DNA from: a virus
Taxonomy: Duplodnaviria; Heunggongvirae; Uroviricota; Caudoviricetes
Reading direction: 5' to 3' (one strand)
IMG/VR virus record: IMGVR_UViG_2740892258_000020
DNA: 25,906 nucleotides
In this document: in pieces, positions 2,512 through 25,567 of the stretch
Layout of the letters: each line of letters begins with the position of its first letter
Numbering within the stretch: position 1 is the first letter of the stretch
Made by a program: the position numbers and the translations under genes
Notes under the pieces: model-generated
Seen by the model: only the letters and a program-made list of their open reading frames with translations
Told to the model about the DNA's origin: nothing
Databases searched by the model: none

Positions 2512-2527
2512 ATTACCTTTCAGGTAA
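2512..2527. promoter_or_regulatory. operator-like palindrome ATTACC-TTTCA-GGTAA, site 1, in the tailspike / 85-aa gene divergent region
   Basis: Inverted repeat TTACC-N5-GGTAA; one of five copies in the window, all intergenic. Confidence 0.55.
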
Positions 2528-2564
2528 TTTGCAAAACGTGCTGGATAGCAAACAAATTATTTGC

Positions 2565-2584
2565 TACTGTATAAATATACAGTT
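2565..2584 (+). promoter_or_regulatory. LexA (SOS) box immediately upstream of the 85-aa gene
   Basis: TACTGTATAAATATACAGTT matches the E. coli LexA consensus TACTGTATATATATACAGTA at 18 of 20 positions with the CTGT-N8-ACAG core intact; it ends 20 nt before the ATG and overlaps the likely -10 region. Confidence 0.7.
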
Positions 2585-2603
2585 ATTGCATGGAGAAGAT
2601 AAG

Positions 2604-2861
2604 ATGCAGCAGTATCACTATCCACTGGAAGACGGATTTACCGAAAGGATTCACACGCCGGGAGGCGTCAGGTCACTGGTGGAGGGATCGCACTTGATGA
2701 AATTACTCCGGGATCTCGATAAGGATGGATTTAATGTCGATGGCCCACTTGCCGAACTGACTGCACTGATTAACTACGTCACCAGCTCACAGATGTCTAT
2801 GCAGGATCTGCAAACACATCTCGACTATTGTGCCGAACAATTACGAAAACAAACCCGGTAA
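2604..2861 (+). CDS. small protein (85 aa) that is a standalone copy of the Bro-N antirepressor C-terminal domain; predicted SOS-inducible
   Basis: ATG at 2604 with GGAG 9 nt upstream (ORF-track start at 2481 is an unlikely extension). Residues ~15-75 (IHTPGGVRSLVEGSHLMKLLRDLDKDGFNVDGPLAELT...DLQTHLDY) align with the C-terminus of the 4247..4942 protein (IHSPSGVLGLTENSLLMNLLNQLQEDGHDVSGAAAELT...DIQTHAEY). Confidence 0.6.
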   Translation: MQQYHYPLEDGFTERIHTPGGVRSLVEGSHLMKLLRDLDKDGFNVDGPLAELTALINYVTSSQMSMQDLQTHLDYCAEQLRKQTR

Positions 2862-2868
2862 ATTTAAA

Positions 2869-2884
2869 GGCCGCAAGAGCGGCC
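2869..2884. terminator. shared hairpin GGCCGC-AAGA-GCGGCC between convergent genes; U-tract on the minus-strand side
   Basis: Perfect 6-bp GC stem directly after the stop of the minus-strand toxin-like gene and 8 nt after the stop of the 85-aa gene; followed on the minus strand by TTTAAATTT. Confidence 0.45.
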
Positions 2885-2885
2885 A

Positions 2886-3392
2886 TTAACAGTCGTAAAA
2901 TTCCGGGTCCCACAAACTTGCATCGCGCGGCATGGATTCTAAATTTTTCAGCCGCAAAATTCTGTCACACTCGACAAGAAGTTTTTGTTTTTGTTCGTCA
3001 ATTTCTACTTTTTTGTGTGCTGGCTCATCCCAGTAATCCAGAAGAAACGCATGTCGCTCAGACGTTACAAGATAAATCACATACACATCACTGGTTGGTA
3101 TTTTTTTATGCTTGTTGGTGGTCTTGTCTTTCTTCCCGGATGCCCAGTTTTTCCAGCATTGTTCCGTACCGCTCTCACCAAACTTGTCAGTATAGTTTCC
3201 GATGTTTACGTGAACGTGGCGTATGTGATATTCCAGCATCTCTTTCGGTGGATCCCGAAACAGAGTGTCCTTTCCGAAATCCTTATGATGACCGTAGCGC
3301 CAGTGATCTATGAACGCGTTTTTGATAGGTATTAGCTCAGGGTCCTTCCCAAAAATTCCAGGGTGAACCAACCCCTGGAATTTATTCAGCAT
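2886..3392 (-). CDS. YafO-family toxin-like protein (168 aa), probable mRNA-interferase type toxin
   Basis: Motifs resembling E. coli YafO as I recall it: PGIFGKD (YafO PDIFGRD), HVHVNIGNYTDKF (YafO IHLANENNPF), VYVIYLVTSERHAFLLDYWDEPAHKK (YafO HLVYCQGAFDEQAWLLIAILKPEPHK), plus a Lys-rich insertion. Start at ATG 3392..3390 with AGGAG 10 nt upstream; it overlaps the stop of the upstream gene by 11 nt. The ORF-track start at 3497 would give an implausible Arg/Ser/Cys-rich N-terminus. Confidence 0.5.
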   Translation of the reverse strand: MLNKFQGLVHPGIFGKDPELIPIKNAFIDHWRYGHHKDFGKDTLFRDPPKEMLEYHIRHVHVNIGNYTDKFGESGTEQCWKNWASGKKDKTTNKHKKIPTSDVYVIYLVTSERHAFLLDYWDEPAHKKVEIDEQKQKLLVECDRILRLKNLESMPRDASLWDPEFYDC

Positions 3393-3801
3393 CGTCGTAG
3401 AGCTCCTGAGCCATATCTTCGGCAGTGCGTGCAAACATCCTGCGCGAGATTGCATGAGATTTCTCGACGGACATCTTTGGGACCTCATGCATAACATTTT
3501 TGGGAGTTGTGTAATAGCCTATTACAATTTTCACACCTGACTTATGATTAATATCAGCATAATATACTTCTTGTTCAGACGTTTCACGACGAACATAATC
3601 TGCCAGTTTTCCACATTTAAATTCCCCTCCCTGATGTTTTAAAATCTCCTCAACTGCACTATTTTCAGTGAAATACCGAATAAGAAATTTCTGTCCAGAC
3701 TCTTCAGCATGAGGTATAACAGTATTATTGGAAGCCCGAACAATGGCCTTACTCAATATTTCATGGTCTTTATTTTTTTCTGATTTCCTCAAATGCTGCA
3801 T
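3382..3801 (-). CDS. unknown 139-aa protein translationally coupled to the toxin-like gene; candidate antitoxin or sensor partner
   Basis: ATG at 3801 with GAGAG upstream (ORF-track start at 3837 is TTG). Its stop lies inside the first codons of the downstream gene. Does not resemble YafN/Phd-type or RelB/RHH antitoxins that I can recognise. AT-rich. Confidence 0.6.
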   Translation of the reverse strand: MQHLRKSEKNKDHEILSKAIVRASNNTVIPHAEESGQKFLIRYFTENSAVEEILKHQGGEFKCGKLADYVRRETSEQEVYYADINHKSGVKIVIGYYTTPKNVMHEVPKMSVEKSHAISRRMFARTAEDMAQELYDDAE

Positions 3802-3933
3802 TACTGTAGCTCTCTTCGTGTTCACGGGCACCCCCAACTACCTCTAGGGTAAACATTCTATCGAAAGTATACGCATACTGGCAAAAAAATAGGCAGGTAT
3901 TTTCTGAAATGGGATCAATCAAACCACATAGGG

Positions 3934-3977
3934 TTGAAATAACGTGAGTTATGCATTTATTATTACCTTTGCGGTAA
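3934..3977 (+). promoter_or_regulatory. sigma70-like promoter (TTGAAA-17/18-TATTAT) overlapped at the -10/+1 region by operator palindrome site 2 (ATTACC-TTTGC-GGTAA, 3962..3977)
   Basis: Good -35 and -10 hexamers with correct spacing; palindrome begins inside the -10. Points toward the Bro-N gene. Confidence 0.5.
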
Positions 3978-4069
3978 ATTTACATCGCACTCCTCTTGTG
4001 CCATAGTAATCGGGCACTGGAAAAATCCAGTGCCGGGATTGGCGTCCCGGATTACTAAAAGGCGCATTC

Positions 4070-4090
4070 ACCGCGCAAGCGGTTTTTTTA
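4070..4090 (+). terminator. intrinsic terminator-like hairpin (CCGC-GCAA-GCGG with GNRA loop, then 7 T) inside the 5-prime leader of the Bro-N gene
   Basis: ACCGCGCAAGCGGTTTTTTTAT about 100 nt downstream of the promoter and about 155 nt upstream of the Bro-N ATG; preceded by two further stem-loops (4011..4036 and 4034..4050). Confidence 0.4.
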
Positions 4091-4246
4091 TGCGTATAGC
4101 ACGGCCACATTCGTATTATGGTGGGCTGTGTGGGGGCACCGAAAGGTGCGCCGGGTCCTTTTAGCCGGTTACGCCAACCCTGCACAGTTCACCACCAACC
4201 GATTGGCGTCGGTAGTGGTGATTAACCAGACTAAAAGGTAACCACT

Positions 4247-4942
4247 ATGACAGCTACAAAAAGCACGTCCATTTTTTCTTTCGAATCCCAAGCCGATATA
4301 CGGGTAATCGTCATTAATGGTGAGCCATGGTTTATCGCTTCAGATGTTTGTCGGGCTATAGGCATAGCAAATCATCGAGATGCTGTTCGAAAACTTGATG
4401 ATGATGAGAAGGGCGTCGCTTCAACCGACACCCCTGGCGGTGAGCAAGAATCGATCATCATCTCCGAGTCAGGCCTCTACACACTGATCCTCCGCTGCCG
4501 CGACGCAGTGACACCAGGCACTATCCCCTACCGCTTTCGTAAATGGGTTACAGGTGAGGTTCTTCCTCAGATCCGCCGCACCGGAAGTTACATTAAAAAC
4601 TCGCTCCCGCAGGAAGAACGCATAAAGATGGTTGCCGACCAGGTAGCCAACGCCACAGCATCAGCAGTGATGCAGGCAATGAAGATAGAGAACAAAACCT
4701 ACAGTGCCCCACTGAAGCCCGGCTACCGCAGCCTGATTCATTCGCCGTCTGGTGTTCTCGGCCTGACGGAGAACTCACTGCTGATGAATCTGCTGAACCA
4801 GTTACAGGAAGACGGGCACGACGTATCGGGCGCGGCGGCGGAGCTGACCACCATGTTCTGCTACATCGTCGGTGTGAGCAAGTGCCTGCGTGATATCCAG
4901 ACGCACGCGGAGTACATCAACGACAAGGCTGGGTTCTTCTGA
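4247..4942 (+). CDS. Bro-N domain phage antirepressor-like protein (231 aa) with a C-terminal domain shared with the 85-aa protein
   Basis: N-terminus FSFESQADIRVIVINGEPWFIASDVCRAIGIANHRDAVRKLDDDEK...ESGLYTLILRCRDAVTPGTIPYRFRKWVTGEVLPQIRRTG is the canonical Bro-N (phage antirepressor N-terminal) signature. Confidence 0.8.
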   Translation: MTATKSTSIFSFESQADIRVIVINGEPWFIASDVCRAIGIANHRDAVRKLDDDEKGVASTDTPGGEQESIIISESGLYTLILRCRDAVTPGTIPYRFRKWVTGEVLPQIRRTGSYIKNSLPQEERIKMVADQVANATASAVMQAMKIENKTYSAPLKPGYRSLIHSPSGVLGLTENSLLMNLLNQLQEDGHDVSGAAAELTTMFCYIVGVSKCLRDIQTHAEYINDKAGFF

Positions 4943-4979
4943 CGGGCGGCGGCACATGGATGTGCCTTTAAAATAATCA

Positions 4980-5023
4980 TTGGCGATGTGATGTAGATTC
5001 GCGTAATATTACCTTACGGGTAA
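4980..5023 (+). promoter_or_regulatory. sigma70-like promoter (TTGGCG-18-TAATAT) overlapped by operator palindrome site 3 (ATTACC-TTACG-GGTAA, 5008..5023)
   Basis: Same promoter/operator geometry as at 3934..3977; about 60 nt upstream of the 210-aa gene. Confidence 0.45.
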
Positions 5024-5082
5024 GAAAGCGTTTTTAATCTTCCCTTCAAAACGCGTCCTGTAGCCAAACATGGGAGGACGAA

Positions 5083-5715
5083 ATGAAAACAAATACAACA
5101 AGAAAAGCGATGCCATACATTATCCCAGAAGCAGATTTCGACAGAAAACTGAACATGTCTGAGAAGAACACTAGTCACACCGAAAGCTACTTAGCGAAAG
5201 GTGTGGTTGATTTCGTTCTTCCGGGATTCACAACACCTTATGGTTATCGCCTTGTAAAATCTTGTAATGGCGATCATTACAGAATGATTACTACCAGCGA
5301 TACTCCAGAAACGGTGTATGCGGTTAAGTTAATCTTTCGGGAAGATATCGTCGAAGCTAAAAGAACATGTACGCAGATCATGGTATGGCGTACGCCTAAT
5401 GTTATTCATGACCGTGCTGTTCATGGTTTGCCTCAGATTTTTTTTCAGTTCTTCCTAGAGCAATATGCGATCGTTGTATCTGATGAGCAACAAACAATCG
5501 ATGGGAGAAGATTCTGGGAAAGAATGATTTCTTGGGCTATAAACACCCCGGGATATAATGTATACGTTTCAGATGGCTCTGAAGAAGATAGACCTCTTAG
5601 CTTCATGACATCATGGGATGATTTCTATAGCCAGTGGGCTGATTTCTGTTGGGGCAGTGATAAAGATGTGCATACCCACAGACTACTGGTTATAAGCAAA
5701 GATAAACTGCATTAA
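5083..5715 (+). CDS. hypothetical cargo protein (210 aa), monocistronic
   Basis: ATG with GGGAGGA RBS 5 nt upstream; followed by a strong intrinsic terminator; AT-rich; no recognisable motif. Confidence 0.7.
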   Translation: MKTNTTRKAMPYIIPEADFDRKLNMSEKNTSHTESYLAKGVVDFVLPGFTTPYGYRLVKSCNGDHYRMITTSDTPETVYAVKLIFREDIVEAKRTCTQIMVWRTPNVIHDRAVHGLPQIFFQFFLEQYAIVVSDEQQTIDGRRFWERMISWAINTPGYNVYVSDGSEEDRPLSFMTSWDDFYSQWADFCWGSDKDVHTHRLLVISKDKLH

Positions 5716-5719
5716 TAGA

Positions 5720-5742
5720 AGCCCGCAGCGCGGGCTTTTTTG
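5720..5742 (+). terminator. rho-independent terminator AGCCCGC-AGC-GCGGGCT followed by TTTTTT
   Basis: Perfect 7-bp GC-rich stem and six T immediately after the stop of the 210-aa gene. Confidence 0.75.
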
Positions 5743-5813
5743 TGGACGAAACAAAAGTCAGTGCTACACTCATTGACGCCACATTGAGGTGGCTTATAGA
5801 TGGAAATTTCACA

Positions 5814-5975
5814 ATGAAAAAAGCATTTGCTGCACTGTTCGTTTTGTTGTCTCTGGTAGCTTCAACTCAGGCCTTTGCCGGTCGTTGTCAGCACGACAGC
5901 GATACTGCTGCTGACGGCTCCCGCTGCGGTGGGCGTTCTGCGGATTCCCGCCCGGGTGGCGGTGGCATTCGTTAA
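5814..5975 (+). CDS. possible small secreted peptide (53 aa): Sec-type signal peptide then a Gly/Asp/Arg-rich 31-aa mature region with two Cys
   Basis: MKKAFAALFVLLSLVASTQAFA|GRCQHDSDTAADGSRCGGRSADSRPGGGGIR. Upstream TTGACG-16-TATAGA promoter-like hexamers; weak or no SD. Bracketed by terminators at 5720..5742 and 5981..5998. Confidence 0.35.
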   Translation: MKKAFAALFVLLSLVASTQAFAGRCQHDSDTAADGSRCGGRSADSRPGGGGIR

Positions 5976-5980
5976 AAACA

Positions 5981-5998
5981 AGGCCGCGAAAGCGGCCT
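5981..5998. terminator. bidirectional hairpin AGGCCGC-GAAA-GCGGCCT; T-run on the minus-strand side terminates the 283-aa gene
   Basis: 7-bp stem with GAAA loop; on the minus strand followed by TGTTTTTAAC. Confidence 0.65.
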
Positions 5999-6004
5999 GT
6001 TTGA

Positions 6005-6856
6005 TCACTGTGCAGTTTTCGCTGATCGATTTTCAGCTCTAAATTCAAGAACCGTTTCAATATTTCTTTCCTTCAGCATATCAATAACATTTTTATTCAT
6101 TTGACTATCACTGGTTAATAACTGGTAAACGTTGCTTCTCTCTTTATCAGAGTTTTCTTTAACAGCTGCTTTGCATGCCAAATGCTTATTGAAATTTTCT
6201 ACATCGCTAGTACAGGAATTTACGGCTGCTGATGAAATATCAGACGCTGAAGAAACACCATCATCCAAACGTTTTATAGCATTTTCTATACATGAGTTAA
6301 GGGAATAAACGACAACTGAGCGATACCCTTCAGACGCACACCATTCTAAATTTCTTGAAGGATCGAGTGGTTTTACTTCGCTGGATTGAATTAACTTGTC
6401 AAAAACTGACTTATATTCAATCTGTTTTTTATCTATAGCCCATACTTCAGTAGCTGATTTATAATTCCCCGTATGCCTATTAACATCAAATCCATGTTTT
6501 ATAAGCAAATCTGCCCATGAAAGATTTATTGATTCATTGTTATGAGGCCATTTTCCTGTCAGAACCGCCCCCATAGACCCCATATATCCGCCATATGATG
6601 GTATAGCACCATGGCTCAGTAACTTCTCAGCAACCACAGGGCAATTAATTACATAAGAGGCGTAAAGCCCATTCCATAAAGCCCCTCTATAGTAATCGCC
6701 ACGATTAGGTTCTTTTAAGTCGATAGCCTTTGATAATTGTTCACACGTTTTGCATGCATCAAAGTTATCCTTATTGCATTGCAATGAACTGGCAGCTGTA
6801 GGATTTACAGAGACTATTGAAAGCACTATGCCAAAAAACAAATTTATTTTTTTCAT
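6005..6856 (-). CDS. secreted/periplasmic cargo protein (283 aa) with N-terminal signal peptide, many Cys, and possible ankyrin-like repeat motifs
   Basis: MKKINLFFGIVLSIVSVNPTAASS signal-like N-terminus; motifs PVVAEKLLSHGAIP and ADLLIKHGFDVNRHTG resemble ankyrin repeat consensus (tentative). AT-rich; ATG 1 nt after the stop of the upstream ejection-protein gene. Confidence 0.7.
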   Translation of the reverse strand: MKKINLFFGIVLSIVSVNPTAASSLQCNKDNFDACKTCEQLSKAIDLKEPNRGDYYRGALWNGLYASYVINCPVVAEKLLSHGAIPSYGGYMGSMGAVLTGKWPHNNESINLSWADLLIKHGFDVNRHTGNYKSATEVWAIDKKQIEYKSVFDKLIQSSEVKPLDPSRNLEWCASEGYRSVVVYSLNSCIENAIKRLDDGVSSASDISSAAVNSCTSDVENFNKHLACKAAVKENSDKERSNVYQLLTSDSQMNKNVIDMLKERNIETVLEFRAENRSAKTAQ

Positions 6857-6857
6857 C

Positions 6858-9800
6858 CTATTTCATCTGCTCTTCAACTTTATTTAGTAACGGTGATATT
6901 GCCCACAGGTTCTGAAAAGGTAGCATTTTACGGACCGCGTGGGTTTGCTGGCTGTCAAATTCTCCGTTAAGTACACCATTCGCAACCGTCGCGGCATCAC
7001 CGCCAAGATCAAAGGTAGGACCAAGTAAAGCACCAATAGCATTACGACTCTGAAACCTTGATACCGGAGGCGCACCAAACATCGCGCCAAGACCAAACCT
7101 ACCGCCGCTTATGTTCTCAACGGTATTCAGCGGCTCAGAGAGCCAGCCAAGCATTCCGCCCCGGTCGATCCCCTCTTTCACAAGGTTATTCCAGCTGTAG
7201 TCAATATCGCGACCGCTTAACTTCTGTTTCATCATATAGACCATTGAGCCAAGCGCAATCGTGCCAAGCGCACCAAGATAGAATGCAGCATCGCCCTGCT
7301 GGATACCAGATACCAGCACCCTGTTATGCTGTGCGAAGATAAACGTTTTGAACTGCGTGATCATCTTCCAGCCTTCTTTACTAAAAAACAGCGGTGTATC
7401 ACCTACGCCAGGCGTTACAATCACTGAGTCTACATCTTTCAGCACTGCAGACTGGAAAATCTCTCTAGCGAAACGGTCATCCCACAGATGACTATGCCCG
7501 GTTAACAGCCCGTCCATATCCTCTCCGTGCTTCCCGAATTGCTCCCCGATTCGGCGCAGAACATCTTCATTGATGCCGACCTGTGCCATCTTCCGCATTT
7601 CACTTTTGGAGAGCGTGCCACCAGCAGAAACTTGGCGAGCCGCGTCAAGTATCCTCGACTGCACTATCATCCCGGACCATGATTTAAGTGCGCTGTTCCA
7701 CTGATTCATCAGCGTCCAGTTACCGAATTTCTGCGTCATCCAGTTCAGGCCTCGCTCAGCGGCGCTTCTCCGGCTATATGGGTCAGTAAGATCCGCTATA
7801 GCCTTTGTACGCGTAGACAGGACATAATCAAGCCCAACGGCCATTTCTCGCAAATCCCTGGTTGCAATTTTCACTGAGTCCATATTTTTAAGCATGCTTA
7901 CCATTGGTCCGAGAGATTTTCTCAGGCCATGCTGCATCATCGGTCGCATCAGATCAGTTGCAGCGGAGACAGTCATTCCACCAAGCAAACGGAGGAAGTT
8001 AATATTCCTAGCAACTCGCCCGGCACGAACAAAGAAACTGCGTGGATCTTGAGGTGCACCGTAAGTACCAAGCAGTCGATCACGCATAGCCGTAATATCC
8101 CTAATATCAGCCTCCCGTTGCTTCTCAAGAACTGCACGTCGTTTAGGCGTTTTAGCCTCTTTTATTAGCCGGGTATATTCCTCACTAACCTGACGGATTT
8201 GCTCCCCCATATCTTTACGGCCAAACTGCGCAGTCAGCTCAATTTCTGGTGCCACCTGCCGGAGATAACTTTCCATGATGTAGTTAACATCTGATTCAAG
8301 AAAATCTTCTATACGCTCATCAGGAATAAGCAGCGTTCTGCTTTTAGTGAAACCAGCCCGACCAACGAGTCTCTCTGGGATAATATCGGCTGGTACAAGC
8401 CCGGAAGGTGCACCTATTATTTTATTCACGATCTCGTCAGCAGCGTCCTCTGCTTCCTCTCGGGATAGAGGCTCCATCTGCTTCAGTGCTCGTTCGCGGC
8501 TTGCATTCAGCCTTGTGGTTGAATTTGCCCGTTTTTGCAGTCGGCGAAGCTCAGAACGATATTTCCGTGGATTATCCAGCAACTCCATATGGCGCTGATA
8601 GACAGGAAGCTCACTCTTTGCCTGCGCTATATCATCAAGGCGTGTTTTAAGGTCAGAGCTTTCTTTCATCATTCTTGCCTGAAGTTTTTCTGATGAAGTC
8701 TCGGCCAACTCTTTTTCTATTCTTGTAAGACGCGCCTGTGTGTCAGTCTCCTGAGATATAAGCTTATTTCGTTTATCCAGTTCTTCCATGAGTAGAATTT
8801 TTTTACCAGACCATTTCTCCGCTTCAGCGATTTCACTAGCGAGAGCATCAGCGCGCGGTGCCGATTCCTCTGCAGTTTTTAGCAATGAATTTATCCTTTC
8901 AATTCGCTGACCTGCCTTGTCAGCACCTTTGGCACTAATCCCTTGTATCCAGTTGGCAATTCGCCCTCTGAATTCAGTGCGGTCGGAAAGTATCTTATCG
9001 AACTTATAAATGCGGGGAAGATAACTTTTCGCCGTCACGACATCGATATCCTCAGGAAGGATCCCCAGTTCCTGCATACGGGCTTTTGTGGTCTCGAAAA
9101 TGGGGCGGATTCTGGCAGCTGCTTGTGAAACCTCAGGAATATCACTCTGATCACCACGGCGCATAGCCATGCCAACAGCTTCATTGAAATCAATAAAGTT
9201 CATCCTCTTCACGCCGCGGGCGCTAACAGATTTGCTGTACTGCTGGTAAGCATCACGAGTGGCTTCCATCTGCTTATAAAGCATGGCGTCGTATTGCTTA
9301 ATCTTAGTCTCGACTGCCGTAAACGTAGCCAACCCCTCATCATTTTTGGCGAAGAAATAGTTATTTTCGGCAAGCTGCTGGTTAATCTGACGGGAGACAA
9401 GAGATGGTGATTGCGCCAAGCGGCCAGCAGGAGTGACACTCAACGTTTTGTTAGCAAGTCCAAGTCCAGCGAGCTGTTCCTGATCGAGTGTGGTATTGAA
9501 AACCTGAGCTGCACCAATGCTTTGAGGAGAATCCATACCTCGCAAATGATTACCTACTGAGTTAACCACTGCCTCGCGCGCGCCAGGTCCAGCAAGTAGC
9601 TGTGCACCAGCACCAAGGATCCCACCAACGAGAGCATCAACAACAACGTTCGATACGCTCTCCATCGGTGAGCGAGCTTCCTGAGTGGCCTGTAATGCGG
9701 CCTCTGAAGCAACACTGCCAGCAGCATTCGCCAGGGCAAAACGCCCGGCTGTTTCTGCAATACGACCGCCACGAACGACAGCGCCGAACGGAATAAACAT

Positions 9801-17441: not shown

Positions 17442-17485
17442 TCCTGCAATAAAGGGGCCGAAGCCCCTTGTCTGATCCGCGAGGC

Positions 17486-17830
17486 TTACACGCCCAGTTC
17501 TTTACGCTTATCTGCGATCTTCTCGCGGAGCGTTTCGGCTTTGGCGTTATGGTGTGGCTTCTCGTTAAAGAGCAATTCGTACTCTTCACGGAGCTTATCC
17601 AGTTCACCATCATCTGACACATCGTTGATGATTTTGGTGCTGGTTGCTGCCATAGACACCTTTCCTGCTACCTTTGCTTTTGCCTGTCTGGCTGCATCGT
17701 TAACAGGTTCCAGTGCGCTACCAGGCTCACCTTCGTATTCGATTTCTGCCCCCTCCGGCCACAGAGTGTTATGGATATGAGAGAGGCGCAGAACGCGGTA
17801 TCTTGGTTTCTCACCTGACATCGATATCAC
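17486..17830 (-). CDS. hypothetical virion-module protein (114 aa)
   Basis: ORF in the late operon between capsid-associated and tail genes; followed by a UUCG-loop hairpin (17452..17467). Confidence 0.5.
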   Translation of the reverse strand: MISMSGEKPRYRVLRLSHIHNTLWPEGAEIEYEGEPGSALEPVNDAARQAKAKVAGKVSMAATSTKIINDVSDDGELDKLREEYELLFNEKPHHNAKAETLREKIADKRKELGV

Positions 17831-17831
17831 C

Positions 17832-18269
17832 TTAACCAGTTACTTTTGAGAGGATCGGATACGGCGTATTGGCATCAACATCAAGACTGATACCAGCAGT
17901 GAATTCGCCAGCCGTTAGTGGGCCAGTTGCGACGGAGTAGTTAACACGCAGATATCGCTGAACACCGGCAGGCACCTTTGCAGAAACAACTCGTTTACCT
18001 GCTGTCAGGGCGGTCTTTGCCAGTGCGCCACTATCATAAATAGTGGTCCATGAGCTGTTATTCTCACTCGTCTGCAACTGGATGTTTACAGTTGCATCAC
18101 CGCTTGCCGCGGCGGCTGTGTTAACCAGCGCCCAAAACTCAAGCGGGTAACCCACGCCGATATCACGACGTTTTCCGTCAATTGGACCGAGATCGATTAC
18201 GTCAGTAGAAGCCGCGGTATTCGTAACCGCCTGAGCTTCGGAGAACATCAACAGTTTGTCGGTGATCAT
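17832..18269 (-). CDS. capsid-associated protein (145 aa), possibly decoration or head-completion
   Basis: Directly follows the major capsid gene; Thr/Ala/Gly-rich, beta-rich composition. Function by position only. Confidence 0.45.
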   Translation of the reverse strand: MITDKLLMFSEAQAVTNTAASTDVIDLGPIDGKRRDIGVGYPLEFWALVNTAAAASGDATVNIQLQTSENNSSWTTIYDSGALAKTALTAGKRVVSAKVPAGVQRYLRVNYSVATGPLTAGEFTAGISLDVDANTPYPILSKVTG

Positions 18270-18320
18270 CTTCTTTCTCCATTAGTGGGTCTGTTACGAC
18301 CCACAGGTTAATAACAGGCG

Positions 18321-19313
18321 TTACACCACGCGGGCTTCTGTTTCCAGAAGCGCATCAGTTTCACGGATTGGTACACCACGGAATGAAGTCCACCACTCGC
18401 CTTCTGTCTCTTTTACGCTGATCGCCAGAGATGTTTTCTCCAGAGATTGCAGATCAAGAGCCTGGCCTACAGTGCGGTTCATGTAGAACACCGGGCGACC
18501 CATGCCACGATTTGGAATGCGATGCAGTGCTTTAACCATCAACTTCGCAATATTTGCGGCAGAGGAAGGTTCTGAAAGATTGCTGACATCGATGTTTGCA
18601 ATGCGAACAACATAACGCCAGTCACGCAGAGCAAGTCCGTTGTCCCATTTGTAATGGGTACGGTAGCCTTCGTACTTGCCGCCATTAGCATCTTCCAGTG
18701 TCACCTGGCCTTTATCTTCCATCTGAATGCCAGCCTTCTGCCCTTTCGGGAAGATGCCATGCACTGTGTTTTCGCCCCACACCACTAACCAGATTGAGGT
18801 GTTATCTGTACCCGTGCCACCAGCATCAATGATGTTCTGAGCATTACCTGCAGACAGGCTGGAATAGCGGGAGGACAGTCCCATAAACTGCTGAGGGTTA
18901 ACGCTGGAATCACCATAAAACAGCGTCTGCGCCATCTGCTGATTCATCGCTTCAATAAATGCGCGGTCTTCAGACAGGCGGAATTCGGCGGTATTACCGT
19001 TCAGATCAGCCAGTGACTTATCGACTTCAGCATAGGTTTCCAGCATTCCAACGGAATCGGTGACCTGCACTGTGGTTGATTTGCTTGGCTGTACGCCATA
19101 GTTCAGCAAACGCCAGGTGGCTGAAGGTAAACCAGAACGAATGGTGGTTCGGTGTCCGGTAGGAAGGTTCCCTTCGACAAAAGGCATATCCTGAAGGATC
19201 GGGTTAGTTTGACCGAGAAGCTCGATAATCTTATCGACTTTCCCGTTTTTATCGACGCGCTTACCCCAGTCAGCCAGCGTTAGCGCAGTTAAGCCTTTAA
19301 CAGCCATTGTCAT
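18321..19313 (-). CDS. major capsid protein (330 aa)
   Basis: Position immediately after the scaffold-like gene and size typical of HK97-fold capsid proteins; GC and codon usage match the structural operon. Confidence 0.6.
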   Translation of the reverse strand: MTMAVKGLTALTLADWGKRVDKNGKVDKIIELLGQTNPILQDMPFVEGNLPTGHRTTIRSGLPSATWRLLNYGVQPSKSTTVQVTDSVGMLETYAEVDKSLADLNGNTAEFRLSEDRAFIEAMNQQMAQTLFYGDSSVNPQQFMGLSSRYSSLSAGNAQNIIDAGGTGTDNTSIWLVVWGENTVHGIFPKGQKAGIQMEDKGQVTLEDANGGKYEGYRTHYKWDNGLALRDWRYVVRIANIDVSNLSEPSSAANIAKLMVKALHRIPNRGMGRPVFYMNRTVGQALDLQSLEKTSLAISVKETEGEWWTSFRGVPIRETDALLETEARVV

Positions 19314-19321
19314 TTCCTCTC

Positions 19322-20023
19322 TTATTTGCCATAGAGCACTTCGGCCGCACTACGCTGGCCTTCATTACCACCGGTGACCATGCCATCTTCAGACATCGCC
19401 TTTCCGATTTTCACGAACGTTTTGACCAGATCAGGGTGATTACCCAGCCCGGTGGTGTTCAGATATTCTTTGAGTTCAGGTGTCCCGAACTGGTCAAGCG
19501 CACGCTGTGCGGCGCTAAGGTTAGAAATCAACTTGTCGCCACCGATTTCTTTGTCAGCTTTTACATCCGCAGCCCACTGCTCGGTTGTTTTCTGCCAGGC
19601 TTCTGCCTGGCGCTGCTGAACACCTGCCAGAATCTTCGGATAAGCATCAACCAGCTTTTGCGCTTGCTCGTTGGTCAGGTTAAGTTCTCGCGCCACCGGC
19701 TCGAATTCCTTCAACGCTTCTGTATCCAGCTCTACGCCTTCGGCAGCCTGAAACTCGTACTTCTCAGGCGCACCCTCTGGTTTATCGCCGTCCTTTTTTT
19801 CATCCTGCTTATCGTTTTCAGGCTTTTTGTCATCAGCAGGTTTATCGCCATCAGCAACAGGTTGTGGCTTATCACCTTCCTGTTGTGATGGATCACCAAC
19901 TGGAGCAGGGTTATCACCTGCAGGCGCTGACGGTTCTGACGCAGCCGGAGCTGCTCCACCATCGACTGGTTGCTCATTGCAAAGACGGCTATACAGCAAA
20001 CGCTCAAATAAATTCATGATCAC
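19322..20023 (-). CDS. scaffolding protein (233 aa)
   Basis: Highly acidic, Pro/Asp/Lys-rich N-terminal half and predicted-helical C-terminal half; lies between portal and capsid genes; 4-nt overlap with the upstream gene. Confidence 0.6.
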   Translation of the reverse strand: MIMNLFERLLYSRLCNEQPVDGGAAPAASEPSAPAGDNPAPVGDPSQQEGDKPQPVADGDKPADDKKPENDKQDEKKDGDKPEGAPEKYEFQAAEGVELDTEALKEFEPVARELNLTNEQAQKLVDAYPKILAGVQQRQAEAWQKTTEQWAADVKADKEIGGDKLISNLSAAQRALDQFGTPELKEYLNTTGLGNHPDLVKTFVKIGKAMSEDGMVTGGNEGQRSAAEVLYGK

Positions 20024-20316
20024 TCCTGTTCACTGGCCTCTTTGGCCATCTTCAAATACTGTTCAGGACAATGCGCCATAACGCGCTGAAACAGTTCCAG
20101 CGCCAGATTGCGTTGCCCCTCATTAAATGCCATTGCCATAGCGTCCATCGGTGAGATAGCGGAAAACACACGGCCTTTCTCCAGCACCGACCAGACAACG
20201 CGACGCCCCTGTTCACTGCTCATGACAAAGCGAATGTCATCAATTTCACGCTGTGCCATGTCACGTTGCTTACGGGCGTTTTCTTCTTTCAGTTGATCGT
20301 CTTCGTAATCTGTCAT
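20020..20316 (-). CDS. small acidic protein (98 aa) between portal and scaffold
   Basis: ORF with ATGA-type overlaps to the portal stop and the scaffold start; function unknown. Confidence 0.5.
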   Translation of the reverse strand: MTDYEDDQLKEENARKQRDMAQREIDDIRFVMSSEQGRRVVWSVLEKGRVFSAISPMDAMAMAFNEGQRNLALELFQRVMAHCPEQYLKMAKEASEQE

Positions 20317-21992
20317 TGTGATTGCCCACCCTGACCACTAACTGCATTCGCCATAGCTGACAAAACACTCGGATCCGAAGTTTTAGCTTCGCTTAGCGTC
20401 TTGGCACCCTGTGCCGCCGCCATCCCCATCGCCATCATTTGTTGCTGCTGTTGCTGCTGTGCCCGTTGCTGGCGAGCCTGCTCAACCTGTTCCTGCGGAA
20501 CAATGACGGTTGGAGACACTCCGGACATATCAGCGAATGCATCGATCGCCTGATCAACGTTGAGTTTGTCGAGAGCTTCTGGTTTCGCTTGCGCAAGTTG
20601 ACCAATGAAGTTAACCGTGGACGCCAGACTGGACAGGCCGATAGACTTCTGCGCCTGAGCCATGACGGAAATGTATTCGACCTTCAGGGGCATACCTTCC
20701 ATCACGTCTGGCGGTGGCGGCAGCATGTTTTTACGCACCATCATCGAGAAAGAGCGGTCAATGAGAGGATTAAGACATTCGTCGTTCAGACGCTCCAGAA
20801 CCGGCCCCAACATCAGAAGTTTTTCTTCTTTCATTTCGATCACCGCTTCAACAGGCATCGAGCGGGTATTGATGTTCTGCAACATCATGAACAGATCGAC
20901 AAAGTAGGCGCTGTTAATGATTTGACGAGTGTCCTGAATGTCTGCCACCAAATCTGCTGTACTGGGGTTAACCAGATAAGCAGGCCTGAAACCATCCTGA
21001 CCAGTAATCTGATCGATATACGTGATGTCGCCAGGAAGAAGGGAGGCACGCTGATTCTTGAGGGAAGTCGGAGCAACCATCGGCGGATTGGTGGCTTTAT
21101 CAATCAACTGCGACTTGCGCTTCTGGAGAAGCTGCAATGCCTTAACAGGTCCAAGCGCCAGCATACCCGGGCATGATGATCCATAAACATCTTCGCCGTT
21201 AACTTCCCAGCGCGGAGCCATAATTGGAAACTCATCGAATCCGGACTCACGCAACAACTTGTCGTTATCGCCACCAACCTCGTAATAAACCGATTTGAAT
21301 GGCTTGTTCTTGCTATCCAGCTTCGATGTATCGCGGTCAATGTTCGGGTAAACCGAATGCATCACTTCAATCCACTTCTCGTAGGTGCCGCTTTCCCACA
21401 TGCTTTTTACGGATTCGCTGACGTTATTTAGCCCGAACTCCTGAACAAGCTGACGAACAGTCATAGAGAACTTGCGAAAACAGGTGTCCACACTGCCACG
21501 AGGTGAGTTAGCCAGGTAGTAACTGCCTATCGGGAATGGCATTGTGCGAATGATGTCCTCGTCATCCTCCAGCACCGCCATTGCACCAGTGCTGTATGTG
21601 CCGAGGCTTCCGTATAACTGCGGAAGAGACTGGTAGAGATTCGACTTATTGAACATATCGTTCATGCGGTTCTGCACCGCCTCGAGCCACAACTTAACAG
21701 GACCATAATCCATCATTTCAGGATCTGGCGTAGCCAGGCGAAACCACGGACGCGCAGGGCTTGTGATGCCTGACATCATGCCGCTGGCGAGAGTGCGCGC
21801 CGCCATAGTCCCGGTCGAATCAATAATGCGTGTATTGCGTCGATCGTTACGGTTGACTTCAGAAGTCAGAAAGCGGGAACCACGCGGGTTGATGTAATCA
21901 CTCAACTCGCGCCAGTGCGGCTCGAACGACTGACGCTCGCTTTCAAGTTGTGCGAACTGTTTGTTCAATCGCTCTTTAGTTGTTTCCGCCAT
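20313..21992 (-). CDS. portal (head-to-tail connector) protein, T7 gp8-like (559 aa)
   Basis: Size close to T7 gp8; C-terminal region (EQARQQRAQQQQQQQMMAMGMAAAQGA) strongly resembles the T7 gp8 C-terminus (EEQKQQKMAQQSMQMGMDNGAAALAQGMAAQA) as I recall it. GGAG RBS. Confidence 0.8.
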   Translation of the reverse strand: MAETTKERLNKQFAQLESERQSFEPHWRELSDYINPRGSRFLTSEVNRNDRRNTRIIDSTGTMAARTLASGMMSGITSPARPWFRLATPDPEMMDYGPVKLWLEAVQNRMNDMFNKSNLYQSLPQLYGSLGTYSTGAMAVLEDDEDIIRTMPFPIGSYYLANSPRGSVDTCFRKFSMTVRQLVQEFGLNNVSESVKSMWESGTYEKWIEVMHSVYPNIDRDTSKLDSKNKPFKSVYYEVGGDNDKLLRESGFDEFPIMAPRWEVNGEDVYGSSCPGMLALGPVKALQLLQKRKSQLIDKATNPPMVAPTSLKNQRASLLPGDITYIDQITGQDGFRPAYLVNPSTADLVADIQDTRQIINSAYFVDLFMMLQNINTRSMPVEAVIEMKEEKLLMLGPVLERLNDECLNPLIDRSFSMMVRKNMLPPPPDVMEGMPLKVEYISVMAQAQKSIGLSSLASTVNFIGQLAQAKPEALDKLNVDQAIDAFADMSGVSPTVIVPQEQVEQARQQRAQQQQQQQMMAMGMAAAQGAKTLSEAKTSDPSVLSAMANAVSGQGGQSQ

Positions 21993-22006
21993 TTCAATGA
22001 CTCCGG

Positions 22007-22213
22007 TTACTGACCAAGCAGCGTTTTACCGCTGGTATTAGCGGTTGATGTGTCGCCCTGAGAACCGGTAAGCAGCGTAGAACTACGACCAGCAGCAGCG
22101 CGACGGCGACGTGTTTCTTCGTCGCGGGCATCAACAACGGCGGCATCCTGCTCCTGTGGTGCTGCCTGAACTTCTGGTGTTGCAGGCACTGATGGTGAGC
22201 TACCCATGCACAT
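22007..22213 (-). CDS. small low-complexity protein (68 aa) immediately upstream of portal
   Basis: ATG preceded by CGGAGTCATTGAT, nearly the same translation-initiation context as portal (CGGAGTCATTGAA); Ala/Pro/Gln/Arg-rich; coding status uncertain. Confidence 0.4.
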   Translation of the reverse strand: MCMGSSPSVPATPEVQAAPQEQDAAVVDARDEETRRRRAAAGRSSTLLTGSQGDTSTANTSGKTLLGQ

Positions 22214-22240
22214 ATCAATGACTCCGTACGCAATTAAATT

Positions 22241-22262
22241 ATTACCAATTTAACCACATATG
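22241..22262. promoter_or_regulatory. conserved 22-bp element ATTACC-N5-AACCACATATG, copy 2, upstream of the portal operon
   Basis: ATTACCAATTTAACCACATATG; see copy 1 at 2462..2483. Confidence 0.45.
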
Positions 22263-22281
22263 ATTTATTTATCGTAGAAGG

Positions 22282-22318
22282 TTGACATTTAACGCGTTAA
22301 TTATTACCTTTCAGGTAA
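22282..22318 (+). promoter_or_regulatory. TTGACA -35-like hexamer followed by operator palindrome site 4 (ATTACC-TTTCA-GGTAA, 22303..22318); possible plus-strand promoter for the tRNA/moron unit
   Basis: Consensus TTGACA at 22282..22287 with the palindrome centred where a -10 would be; the -10 match itself is poor. Confidence 0.4.
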
Positions 22319-22650
22319 CCAAAGGGCTCATTCTGGTTACTAACCTGACTGGCTTGTCGTTAAATTAAACAGGTGGAGTGAGCTTTTATTTTGAGCAGTA
22401 CGGCGTATGGCACATGCGCCGATAGCGGTCTGGATACGTTTAAGGGGCACCCTCCCTTGCTCGGGCAAACGAACCAGGTAGCCGGAATGTGCAAGTCGAG
22501 CGGTTTTATTCCGCGCACGGGGATTCACCATCCCGGCGATTCGGTGTGACGCCTCGGAAGAGACGAGGGTACAACGATGAGAGCATTTATGGAGCCGCGA
22601 CAAAGTGTGGCGCCTTAACAGGCTAAGTGCTCTCAGCGTTGTGGCATTAG

Positions 22651-22727
22651 CTCAGTTGGACAGAGCAACCGCCTTCTAAGCGGTTGGTCGCAGGTTCGAA
22701 TCCTGCATGCCACGCCAGAATCACGCC
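22651..22727 (+). tRNA. tRNA-Arg, anticodon UCU (reads AGA), phage-encoded
   Basis: Full cloverleaf: acceptor GTGGCAT/ATGCCAC, D-arm GCTC-AGTTGGACA-GAGC, anticodon stem ACCGC/GCGGT with loop CTTCTAA, T-arm GCAGG-TTCGAAT-CCTGC, discriminator G and encoded CCA. Similar to but distinct from host argU as I recall it. Confidence 0.9.
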
Positions 22728-22760
22728 TAAGGACCGTGATGCCAGAAGTTCCAGGTGCTT

Positions 22761-22804
22761 GGCGGTGATGGTTTCCCTTGAAGGACTATCACCGCCCTTT
22801 TTAC
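22761..22804 (+). terminator. terminator-like hairpin (9-bp stem GGCGGTGAT/ATCACCGCC, large loop) followed by CTTTTTA, downstream of the tRNA
   Basis: Perfect inverted repeat and T-run about 35 nt after the tRNA 3-prime end. Confidence 0.5.
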
Positions 22805-22880
22805 AGCAGGACGCCATTGCGATGACTTCATGCTGTAAACCCGTACAGCCACGGAAGGCATAACTCATTGCTTCCAGTTC

Positions 22881-22904
22881 GCCCGGTTCGCCGGGCATTT
22901 TTTT
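22881..22904 (+). terminator. strong intrinsic terminator GCCCGG-UUCG-CCGGGC followed by 7 U, 12 nt upstream of the 140-aa gene start
   Basis: Perfect 6-bp GC stem, UUCG tetraloop, TTTTTTT run. Confidence 0.7.
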
Positions 22905-22915
22905 AAGGTGAGATC

Positions 22916-23338
22916 ATGAAAACAATTGATATGTTGGCTAAGTATCTAAATGAATGGCCATTAAAATATTCTCGTATCGTTCAGGCTGAAGACTGCGTTT
23001 TTTATGGCGTTTTTGCTGGTAATGAAATGCATTACGAAGTAATTCAGAGTGAGGGACTGGCCGGGTTAACGCTTAGCGATGACCATGGAATAGGAGTTAC
23101 TTGCCATGACTGGATTTCAGCGCAGAAAACTGAAATGGAAAAAGGCAATGTGTTTGATATTTCTCGCGCTGTATACGCCAAAGAAAAAAGTGATGATGAT
23201 TACATGCGCGAAAACTTATACAACATGAAGTTACAATGCCTGGCTGAAGTGCTTAGTAAAAGATCTTTACTTGATGTGGTTGGTGCTGAGCAGGACGCCA
23301 AGGCAATCAACGCCGCATTCGATAAAATAACCTTCTAA
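22916..23338 (+). CDS. hypothetical moron protein (140 aa), opposite strand to the flanking terminase and portal genes
   Basis: ATG with AAGGTGAG RBS; AT-rich; followed by terminator at 23361..23385; no domain recognised. Confidence 0.65.
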   Translation: MKTIDMLAKYLNEWPLKYSRIVQAEDCVFYGVFAGNEMHYEVIQSEGLAGLTLSDDHGIGVTCHDWISAQKTEMEKGNVFDISRAVYAKEKSDDDYMRENLYNMKLQCLAEVLSKRSLLDVVGAEQDAKAINAAFDKITF

Positions 23339-23360
23339 CGCCGTGACATGTCACAATCAG

Positions 23361-23385
23361 CCCGCCGATTCGCGGGCTTTTTTAT
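23361..23385 (+). terminator. rho-independent terminator AGCCCGCCGATTCGCGGGCT followed by TTTTTTAT
   Basis: GC-rich stem and T-run downstream of the 140-aa gene; overlaps the 3-prime end of the convergent large-terminase gene. Confidence 0.6.
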
Positions 23386-24857
23386 GCAAAAGGATCATAG
23401 TCTGTGATGGCTTTGCCTTGCTGGTTCTGCTGCCCGGGAATTCGCAGACGCTTCGACACAGGGAACGCAAACGTCAGCAGTAGCGCATCGCCTTTACCAG
23501 GAGAACGCCCAAGTCGCTCTTTGATATCTTCCTTCGGTTCGATAACGATTTTACCGTCCACGCGAACTTTGTACTCTGCCGTCGACAGGTCGTCCGCTGT
23601 TTCCTGGTCATCCAGCATGCCGCCGAGCCTCAGCCATGTCTTGCATGAGTTGAACATCTCCCCACGCTTGTTGAGCATCTGCGGGTCAGTAGACGCGCCA
23701 CCGAACGGAACAAGTTGCCATGTACGACCCCAGCCGTCACCGATTGACTTCAAACCGGTTCCGTAACCGAAGTCGATGAACACCGCGTCAGCCTGATACT
23801 GGTCTTCAAAGTCAGCGATACGCTTCGCCATAATCAGATCGTCGGTAGTCTTGTTGCCAGTCCACAGCACCTTACTGTGTAGCCCCTGCCGCAGGTATAT
23901 CACCGCGTCATCAACGCCTGAATATGCCGGGTCAACACCGATTATCACCGGAGCATGTGCCACCTGCGCAGCGGTTACCACCCGTTTCATTGCCTCGTCA
24001 GTAAGACCGGTAGGGATAAACTGCAATTCAGATGCATCAGGGAATATGCCACGCACACGGATTTTAACGAAGTCGCTATCTTCCCCATAGTCATCAACCC
24101 ATTTCTGCAACTGCTGTTTGTTGGTGCCTTCCACCGTCCTGCTGTCAATCTGCGCAGTTTTCCAGCGGTGTTTGTATTTGCGGAAACATTCACGGAAACG
24201 CCCGGTGTTACGTGTAGGGTTTCCGAAAGCCACCCAGATAATCTCAGTGTCTTCGTCCGTTAGCGCACCCTCGGCAACTTCCCACACCAGATCCGCAATG
24301 TTCGACGCTTCATCAAATACCACGATGATGCGTTTACGCTCGTTGTGTAGTCCGGCGAATGCCTCAGTGTTGTGCTCAGACCAGGGGATTGCGTCAGCTC
24401 GCCACCGCTTGTCGTGCCCAGGGTCATTGCTGTACATCGCGGTAGCGGTACAGGTAAACCAGTCTTTCGTGATAGCAAGGTTTGACCACTTGATAATTTC
24501 CGGCCAGGTCTTCGTTCGTAGCTGGTTGTCGGTGTTGGCGGTCACCACGACCTTACAATCCTCGCAAGTGGACATGCCCCAGTTGATCAGCATTGAGATG
24601 AATGCGGATTTACCAATACCGTGACCAGAAGCACGTGCCAGCATAAGCGGCTGATATCGCGTCTCTGGATTCTGCAGGTGATCACGTATCTCTCGGAACG
24701 CATCGGCCTGCCACTGACGTGGACCGGTGGCATGTGCCAGTTCAGTACCCTCTTCCCCCCACGGGAACGCATAGAGGGCATAGCCAAGCGGATCGTGAGT
24801 GAACCCTGCAATATCCTCGATTAACTGCTCTTCAGGAGATAACGCTGTATCTGTCAC
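23382..24857 (-). CDS. terminase large subunit (491 aa)
   Basis: Walker A-like ARASGHGIGKS, Walker B-like IIVVFDEAS, and a C-terminal nuclease-like region (VIIGVDPAYSG...VFIDFGYG); 4-nt overlap with the small-subunit gene. Confidence 0.9.
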   Translation of the reverse strand: MTDTALSPEEQLIEDIAGFTHDPLGYALYAFPWGEEGTELAHATGPRQWQADAFREIRDHLQNPETRYQPLMLARASGHGIGKSAFISMLINWGMSTCEDCKVVVTANTDNQLRTKTWPEIIKWSNLAITKDWFTCTATAMYSNDPGHDKRWRADAIPWSEHNTEAFAGLHNERKRIIVVFDEASNIADLVWEVAEGALTDEDTEIIWVAFGNPTRNTGRFRECFRKYKHRWKTAQIDSRTVEGTNKQQLQKWVDDYGEDSDFVKIRVRGIFPDASELQFIPTGLTDEAMKRVVTAAQVAHAPVIIGVDPAYSGVDDAVIYLRQGLHSKVLWTGNKTTDDLIMAKRIADFEDQYQADAVFIDFGYGTGLKSIGDGWGRTWQLVPFGGASTDPQMLNKRGEMFNSCKTWLRLGGMLDDQETADDLSTAEYKVRVDGKIVIEPKEDIKERLGRSPGKGDALLLTFAFPVSKRLRIPGQQNQQGKAITDYDPFA

Positions 24858-25450
24858 TGATTGCCATCCTGGCGTTCTTTCAGTCTCTTCCTGGCTGCCG
24901 CTATGCGATCAGCAATTGTCACATTCACATTAACATCCAGGCGTTCTTTGAATGCGTTGACGTCGACGTGCTTACCAATCAGTTCGAGGTTCTTCACCTT
25001 GTCAGGCCATTTAATTTTTTTGAGGATTGTCTCTATCGAATCCTCGTTCATGTTCATGATGGTCGATGACAGATCAAAGCCACTAAGCGTAGTGCGCCAG
25101 ATTTTCGGCCACTCGCGGATTGGCTTAAGGCTCCCATCGTCGTTGAGGATGTCGATCACGTCCATCTGGTCGATCTCCACCAGGCGCATGAGAACGTAAT
25201 CAGCACTGACGCGCATTCGTTTGTTGCGCTCTTCCATCAGCTCGGCAATCCGTTTTTGAATGCGTTCATCGCGCATCATGAGACTGGCTTTAACTGCCGC
25301 TGTATTTGGGGAGAATCCTGCGTTAATCGCTGCCTGAGTCTGGTTTTCAGGCGTTTTGATGTATGACTGGCAATAAGCCTCCTGCATTGCTGTTAGTGGC
25401 TTAAATTGCGTTGATTTGCGTTTATAGGCTTTAGGTTCAGCAGGCATCAT
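24854..25450 (-). CDS. terminase small subunit (198 aa from ATG at 25450; ORF extends in frame to 25546)
   Basis: Immediately upstream of and overlapping the large terminase; region TAMQEAYCQSYIKTPENQTQAAINAGFSPNTAAVKASLMM matches the small-terminase pattern (conserved AA..AG.S..A..A motif). The upstream in-frame extension is low-complexity and contains palindromic repeats, so the shorter start is preferred. Confidence 0.75.
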   Translation of the reverse strand: MMPAEPKAYKRKSTQFKPLTAMQEAYCQSYIKTPENQTQAAINAGFSPNTAAVKASLMMRDERIQKRIAELMEERNKRMRVSADYVLMRLVEIDQMDVIDILNDDGSLKPIREWPKIWRTTLSGFDLSSTIMNMNEDSIETILKKIKWPDKVKNLELIGKHVDVNAFKERLDVNVNVTIADRIAAARKRLKERQDGNQ

Positions 25451-25466
25451 AACCACCGTGGTAATA

Positions 25467-25483
25467 GTTACCGTTGTGGTAAT
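25467..25483. promoter_or_regulatory. operator palindrome site 5 (GTTACC-GTTGT-GGTAAT) within a tandem array of GGTAAT/TTACC half-sites upstream of the small-terminase gene
   Basis: GTGGTAATAGTTACCGTTGTGGTAATAGTACC (25458..25489) contains TTACC-N5-GGTAA flanked by further GGTAAT and TACC half-sites. Confidence 0.45.
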
Positions 25484-25567
25484 AGTACCATGCAAAATAA
25501 AGCCGCCATAGTTGGCGGCAGTATTCAAAACCATCAAATTCATCATGCATAACCCACTCGTGACATG

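Follow-up and report, generated by a model that had tools for sequence, protein, structure and literature searches.

Five copies of an inverted repeat, TTACC-N5-GGTAA, are scattered over a 25,906-nucleotide stretch of tailed-virus DNA (IMG/VR record IMGVR_UViG_2740892258_000020; hereafter the window, by which the whole analysed stretch is meant), and they raise the question which protein reads them. The original prediction, made from the letters alone, took them for the operators of a regulator that it did not name. Judging from sequence comparison, we consider it highly probable that they are operators of Rep, the master repressor of the prophage to which the window belongs. The system is already known at the genus level and is ordinary phage biology without a new principle; what is gained is that a motif seen by eye would be a genuine operator of this prophage family and that its regulator can now be named.

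The palindrome set and the repressor gene

Exact copies of TTACC-N5-GGTAA stand at 2513-2527, 3963-3977, 5009-5023, 22304-22318 and 25468-25482, which agrees with the five positions originally given once the extra A or T at the ends is added. In 100 dinucleotide-preserving shuffles the mean count was 0.00, without even one copy in any shuffle (0/100), which bears out the claim that the copy number is beyond chance. The variant palindrome with an N6 spacer has 0 copies in the window. Palindromes with one mismatch number two, at 3838 and 25450. The sites, in which we see predicted Rep operators, are as follows.

2512..2528, no strand: predicted Rep operator site 1 (ATTACCTTTCAGGTAAT), between the tailspike gene (minus strand, start 2408) and ant
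3962..3977, no strand: predicted Rep operator site 2, adjoining the -10 hexamer of the isrK-C4-BRO/Ant operon promoter
5008..5023, no strand: predicted Rep operator site 3, adjoining the -10 hexamer of the promoter of a cargo gene for 210 amino acids (aa)
22303..22318, no strand: predicted Rep operator site 4, with the gp3-like head-gene unit on one side (minus strand) and the tRNA-Arg/140-aa unit on the other (plus strand)
25467..25483, no strand: predicted Rep operator site 5, promoter-proximal member of the pair at the small-terminase gene (terS)
25450..25464, no strand: one-mismatch second operator of the terS pair (TAACCACCGTGGTAA), 18 bp from site 5
3838..3852, no strand: operator-like site with one mismatch (CTACCTCTAGGGTAA), from the motif scan

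By megablast the window belongs to the epsilon15/phiV10 group of temperate podophages (Uetakevirus), its structural genes being ~98% identical to those of phiV10, phiv142-3, EC.W1-9 and others. Positions 2300-5200 are 100% identical to prophages of K1-type E. coli, for instance those of IHE3034 and APEC O18; compared over the full length with the IHE3034 prophage, the window shows mismatches from its very first bases, at the tailspike-distal end. Coordinates in the whole IHE3034 prophage are labelled L002 below, window position x corresponding to L002 position x+3057. Late genes lie on the minus strand, and the early region, the repressor gene and the integrase gene are found to the right of the window.

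The whole prophage (~39.5 kb) holds 10 exact and five one-mismatch palindromes. Prophage and flanks together contain 16 copies with at most one mismatch versus 0.85 expected, a single near-copy being all that ~9 kb of host DNA on the right contributes. The ~15 prophage sites give the consensus wATTACC-wwWww-GGTAATw, and nearly every prophage transcription unit is headed by one site or a pair. A comparable density in coding regions had been named as an observation that would count against operators; nine of the ten exact prophage copies are intergenic, in a genome whose non-coding share is 7.9%. That all five window sites are intergenic is true by annotation of four of them, but the fifth falls inside the annotated 5' end of the small-terminase gene of IHE3034.

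The gene that we propose as source of the binding protein lies to the right of the window, ~4.8 kb past its end, at L002 33757-34341. It encodes a helix-turn-helix (HTH) protein of 194 aa (WP_000836290.1) homologous to Rep of Salmonella phage SPC32H (PDB 5D50 chain A, E=4e-42), in which Pfam recognises only HTH families of the Cro/C1 type and no S24 peptidase domain. Three sites (L002 33639, 33670 and 33687) stand between a 76-aa cro-like gene and the divergent rep, and two more (L002 34399 and 34461) follow just downstream of rep, the 34461 site directly after a promoter TTGACA-N17-AATTAT; these clusters form a layout like that of right and left operators (OR/OL). The suggestion that the regulator is encoded elsewhere in the prophage is thereby supported, a rep gene flanked by motif clusters being present beyond the window. 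The companion statement, that the window itself lacks an obvious HTH regulator, needs amending, as a regulator-family protein is encoded at 25568-25906 (phrog_536), but the data do not point to it as the binder.

Rep of SPC32H is a tetramer that binds palindromic sites and that is broken up by a tetramer of the antirepressor Ant (PMC9638917). It consists of an N-terminal DNA-binding domain, a middle dimerisation domain and a C-terminal domain for loop-type tetramerisation, and its repression mechanism "has not been extensively characterized" (PMC9986798). The Rep tetramer and its disassembly by Ant are here taken from this secondary literature, and the label of repressor site, discussed next, from a database record.

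The RefSeq record of epsilon15 (NC_004775.2) carries seven features named 'protein_bind: repressor / lysogeny', all of them ATTACC-N5-GGTAAT. They are found before terS (12-27), before gp3 (2931-2947), in the gap between gp19, which is the Ant homologue, and the tail-fibre gene (19895-19911), three times on the OL side of the repressor gene and once before a RuvC-like gene. Alignments show window sites 5, 4 and 1 to be orthologous to 12-27, 2931-2947 and 19895-19911, respectively, and all five window sites match the 10 core bases of the annotated motif exactly. The ZX5 paper gives no operator sequence.

Conservation extends over the group. In epsilon15, phiV10, Tyrion, BUCT711 and the IHE3034 prophage, with 8-11 exact plus 4-6 near copies each, sites recur in the same places: on the late side the terS pair (18 bp), the gp3 site and the divergent site between ant and tailspike, furthermore one site before the BRO/moron unit, one before the lysis genes and one after the cro-like gene, an OL pair 62 bp apart, an OR with two sites 17 bp apart, and another 62-bp pair before the DUF1064/RuvC unit. 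The half-sites are invariant and the 5-bp spacers variable, the central base being A or T in 92/94 symmetrised sites. The Reps of epsilon15, phiV10, Tyrion and BUCT711 are 42-78% identical to that of IHE3034, and because the putative recognition segment NLVNRW of the N-terminal domain is invariant across these Reps, even those of 42-45% overall identity, a common half-site across the relatives would be expected.

In IMG/VR, a scan for site pairs with a distance of 62 bp gave at least 120 stretches, most of them from contigs of ~40 kb. A Rep homologue (41-100% identity) is encoded in 89 of the 120 stretches listed, and in these 89 an operator is always found at a distance of 54-89 bp from where the Rep homology ends; another 25 of those listed contain the genes that neighbour the second 62-bp pair.

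The annotation of site 5 as coding merits separate treatment. In the IHE3034 record it lies inside a 5' extension of terS (24854-25528, minus strand) that also holds the extended -10 element, the second operator and a terminator hairpin.

25502..25519, minus strand: terminator hairpin that ends the early-right operon, also annotated in epsilon15 and phiV10

This hairpin sits just upstream of the terS promoter-operator. In epsilon15 and Tyrion terS begins right after the operator pair, and the conserved N-terminus of the protein, MPAEPK, starts at window 25444. Because the extension has a terminator inside it, the starts of the relatives lie downstream and MPAEPK is read from 25444, the extension is probably spurious; the terS starts of IHE3034 and of the phiV10 RefSeq record are thus probably placed too far upstream. 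The terS pair with its 18-bp spacing is also present in phiV10, epsilon15 and Tyrion, and the spacer of the one-mismatch operator contains the terS Shine-Dalgarno sequence.

A perfect 12-bp palindrome, GTGACATGTCAC, was noted in the same region at ~25556-25567, at the 3' end of the 112-aa regulator-family gene. The terminator and the terS promoter lie downstream of it; the palindrome recurs in phiV10, epsilon15 and Tyrion, and its conservation may reflect either a coding constraint or a site.

Promoter geometry and the proposed switch

A recurring arrangement is found at the operators, in which the last T of a -10 hexamer is the first T of TTACC (the slash marks the end of the hexamer).

3934..3963, plus strand: sigma70-like promoter TTGAAA-18-TATTAT/TACC at site 2, scoring 10/12 in the promoter scan
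4980..5009, plus strand: weaker promoter TTGGCG-18-TAATAT/TACC at site 3, scoring 8/12
PL: TTGACA-17-AATTAT/TACC
DUF1064 unit promoter: TTGATT-17-TTTAAT/TACC
25482..25490, minus strand: extended -10 element of the putative terS promoter on the late strand, TGgTACTAT/TACC (TGGTACTAT), conserved and ending on the first T of the operator

Promoters of at least 9/12 in this register accompany 11/92 operator flanks compared to 0.56% of random positions, the control positions being mostly coding, such that AT-rich intergenic DNA may explain part of the enrichment. The orthologues of site 2 in phiV10 (20497), Tyrion (21393) and BUCT711 (17377) have promoters of 9-10/12. Of the two promoters that had been called well formed, the one at 3934 deserves the description, but that at 4980 reaches only 8/12. 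The geometry of an operator lying on the -10 hexamer is present at sites 2 and 3, as had been proposed, and at site 5 as well, but not at sites 1 and 4. These two lie in divergent control regions, ~65-85 bp from the putative starts on both sides, site 1 being ~65-70 bp from the LexA-overlapped ant promoter and from the tailspike-side elements. The terS and DUF1064 pairs stand between co-oriented genes, after terminators, and each also adjoins a -10-like hexamer.

The features on which induction would depend are found around sites 1 and 2.

2567..2582, no strand: perfect LexA box CTGTATAAATATACAG, 22 bp upstream of ant and conserved in the five-genome alignment
2604..2861, plus strand: ant, small antirepressor of 85 aa, homologue of SPC32H Ant (5D50 chain E, E=4e-47)
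4014..4089, plus strand: isrK-family Hfq-binding RNA with terminator (Rfam 76.7 bits, gathering score 50)
4114..4199, plus strand: C4 antisense RNA (RF01695; 77.7 bits, gathering score 45)
4247..4942, plus strand: BRO-N domain protein with an Ant-like C-terminus, by homology (phrog_450)

The gene at 4247 had been regarded as the antirepressor. This assignment needs correcting: the antirepressor of SPC32H type is the 85-aa gene with its LexA box, and the 4247 product is a BRO-N/Ant fusion, residues 148-229 of which are 42% identical to Ant (E=8e-16; both proteins are in phrog_450). In SPC32H, ant is reported by Kim & Ryu (2013) to be controlled by LexA. SOS induction is likely triggered through the 85-aa ant rather than through the BRO-N gene, and the fusion is a candidate second antirepressor under a predicted Rep operator. 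Site 2 and the BRO-N gene are separated by a leader of 270 nt that contains both isrK and C4, an arrangement that resembles the c4-ant of P1 immI and the isrK-anrP of Gifsy-1.

We propose that in the lysogen each palindrome would be bound by a pair of Rep N-terminal domains and that the Rep tetramer could probably bridge paired sites, 17-18 bp or 62 bp apart. Where the operator lies on the -10 hexamer, at PL, site 2, site 3 and terS (site 5), bound Rep would occlude RNA polymerase; at sites 1 and 4 the mode of action of Rep is inferred only. DNA damage would take LexA off its box at 2567-2582, the 85-aa Ant would be made and would strip Rep from the DNA, and all operator-controlled units would then fire together: PL, PR, the nin-like unit, late terS, the tRNA/140-aa unit, the 210-aa cargo gene and the isrK-C4-BRO/Ant operon. 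Because its C-terminal domain is Ant-like, release of the BRO-N/Ant protein would reinforce induction by positive feedback. For the K1-type E. coli prophage the prediction is that these units are silent in the lysogen and jointly switched on after SOS, among them the tailspike, head and terminase genes, the tRNA, the cargo gene and the two antirepressors. The paired sites (17-18 bp and 62 bp) provide a ready list for the tetramer or looping mode of Rep.

Other readings and known systems

Binding at these particular sites and its regulatory outcome are what we infer, and several points weigh against Rep as their principal reader. The cro-like protein probably uses the same operators, and the repressor features of the epsilon15 record may themselves be predictions. 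All four Rep groups (42-100% identity) have the same half-sites together with NLVNRW, and because the half-site is common to them a test of covariation between repressor and operator is uninformative. In a consensus scan promoter-like matches were no commoner in the region than in shuffles (7 vs 6.9). No convincing sigma70 core promoter overlaps site 1 or site 4, and the TTGACA at site 4, kept in four of five genomes and replaced by GGTCAA in BUCT711, is only 11 bp from an AATTAT.

The alternative that best withstands the evidence, improbable as we consider it, is that the main binder is a different protein, be it the 76-aa cro-like protein, the 112-aa protein encoded at 25568-25906 or a host transcription factor. 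Matches of the first to phrog_35 'transcriptional repressor' and of the second to phrog_536 'transcriptional regulator' would fit, and it is established that lambdoid Cro and CI use the same operators; Cro on the same sites, however, adds to Rep binding and does not replace it. Moreover, rep is flanked on both sides by operator clusters in every genome, Rep homologues co-occur with the motif in the 89 of 120 listed viral stretches described above, the epsilon15 record gives these sites to the repressor, and the host DNA to the right of the prophage has just the one near-copy.

That the palindromes are RNA hairpins or junctions of module recombination, and not protein-binding sites at all, strikes us as very improbable, even though the sites are located at boundaries of gene modules and homology among phages breaks immediately 3' of the site-3 operator. 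The hairpins predicted from them have little stability (-2.2 to -5.4 kcal/mol) and no U-tract, on which grounds the hairpin or terminator reading was rejected; invariant half-sites with free spacers are the signature of recognition by a dimeric protein and not of a selected RNA loop or homology, and the pair spacings of 17-18 and 62 bp are conserved. A chance cluster, for which nothing speaks except that the motif is short (10 specified bases), is practically negligible given the empty shuffles, the synteny in five genomes and the occurrence in >100 viral contigs.

With Rep as the preferred reader of the sites, the set can be compared to known systems. At the level of sequence all the defining features of the epsilon15/SPC32H Rep-operator system are found, and the set belongs to it: the consensus is ATTACC-N5-GGTAAT, homologues of both Rep and Ant are encoded, ant has a LexA box in front of it, and the terS, gp3 and ant/tailspike sites, like those at OL and ahead of the nin-like unit, have counterparts in epsilon15. 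Copies on the OR side are present in epsilon15 too, though unannotated in its record. The epsilon15 Rep is 42% identical overall, its N-terminal DNA-binding part being much better conserved. Beyond what epsilon15 has, this prophage possesses the operator-controlled isrK-C4-BRO/Ant operon and the 210-aa cargo gene, as well as an endosialidase tailspike and a YafO-like cassette.

Lambda offers a second comparison, with two to three adjacent pseudo-symmetric CI operators on each side of the repressor gene (OL and OR), on divergent early promoters, and a cro-like gene opposite the repressor gene. The differences are that Rep, whose SPC32H homologue is non-cleavable, is without the S24 autocleavage domain, with induction by an antirepressor, and that operators are here also found at late, cargo and antirepressor units.

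In phage P1 the C1 repressor acts on many dispersed operators and the immI operon consists of c4 RNA, icd and ant. The likeness lies in one master repressor with operators scattered over the genome, one of which guards the promoter of a C4 RNA and an antirepressor, as site 2 would here. The P1 operators are asymmetric 17-mers and C1 is probably from a different protein family than Rep, whereas the operator described here is a symmetric 15-17-mer and an RNA of the isrK family is present too. For mycobacteriophage L5, Brown et al. reportedly described in 1997 ~30 asymmetric 13-mer stoperators of gp71, orientation-dependent and blocking elongation. The resemblance is superficial and concerns the dispersal of sites in short intergenic gaps, including those within co-oriented operons (terS, DUF1064); here there are ~15 symmetric palindromes, several of them abutting a -10 hexamer, which suggests a block of initiation.

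An extension of the Rep reading, speculative and in our view rather unlikely, is that the ~15 operators together with a looping Rep tetramer or octamer, as reported for the SPC32H homologue, fold the prophage into a bridged, silenced structure, in which sites 1 and 4 would be bidirectional hubs and the cargo slots lytic-only and mobile. If it were true, a second box paired with the Rep operator at sites 1 and 4 would serve an activator of the late units, and tRNA-Arg, the 210-aa protein and BRO/Ant would be lytic-phase-only and not lysogenic-conversion genes. Cassettes moving to unrelated phages such as LLS (see below) would then allow control across phages.

Cargo slot, neighbouring genes and further motifs

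Two features follow site 3 and site 4, respectively, on the plus strand.

5083..5715, plus strand: 210-aa cargo gene (phrog_1349)
22641..22717, plus strand: tRNA-Arg(TCT), first plus-strand gene downstream of site 4

The site-3 promoter-operator is common to phages HEMP4 and TL-2011b, in which the downstream cargo differs. Homology to both over 4940-5023 ends right after the site-3 operator. From these comparisons the promoter-operator appears to behave as a fixed expression slot for exchangeable cargo. Escherichia phage LLS (PQ299149.1), a lambdoid siphophage with its own CI and Cro, carries a homologue of the 210-aa cargo gene (76% nucleotide identity) preceded by TTGGCT-N18-TACTAT/TACCCAGAAGGTAA, with the operator at 42053-42067. 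This is the sole exact copy of the motif in the LLS genome, which served as negative control, and no Rep homologue was detected in LLS; it looks as though the operator moves along with the cargo cassette as an orphan.

A second intergenic CTGT-N8-ACAG (CTGTAAACCCGTACAG) was observed at 22833-22848, where tRNA-Arg and the 140-aa gene flank it. As a LexA box it is a poor candidate, its centre being GC-rich.

Just upstream of the integrase gene, L002 39685-39699 holds a one-mismatch TTACC-N5-GGTAT whose flanks are also conserved. It is syntenic in four relatives and adjoins the Int arm-type sites annotated in epsilon15. This variant may be part of attP and not of the Rep regulon.

A YafO-family toxin-like gene (168 aa) with a 147-aa partner occupies 2886-3825 on the minus strand, between ant and the isrK-C4-BRO/Ant operon. 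This cassette is preceded by a CCATATGTGGTT box (3922-3930) and by the one-mismatch operator at 3838-3852, which lies upstream of the 147-aa gene by 13 bp and is 125 bp away from site 2. A search with defence-system models gave no PADLOC match for the cargo genes, including the YafO-like cassette.

The CCATATGTGGTT box is the second conserved motif mentioned above.

2473..2481, minus strand: conserved box (CCA)TATGTGGTT upstream of the tailspike gene, also at 3922-3930 and 22252-22260

In its full form it is a 14-bp pseudo-palindrome, (AA)CCATAT(G/A)TGGTT (CCATATGTGGTT), found also at L002 31338, 2100 and 34442. Its copies precede gp3, the tailspike gene, the lysis genes, DUF1064 and the toxin cassette on the late-gene strand, with a Rep operator ~31-42 bp away. 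It is followed by GGTAAT 5 nt further on at gp3 and the tailspike gene and by a full operator at DUF1064. It was considered as a fixed -35 element, and its spacing from -10-like hexamers and from start codons was found to vary. Of the blocks before gp3 it is the one most strongly conserved among the five genomes aligned, and it could be the site of an activator or of an architectural protein.

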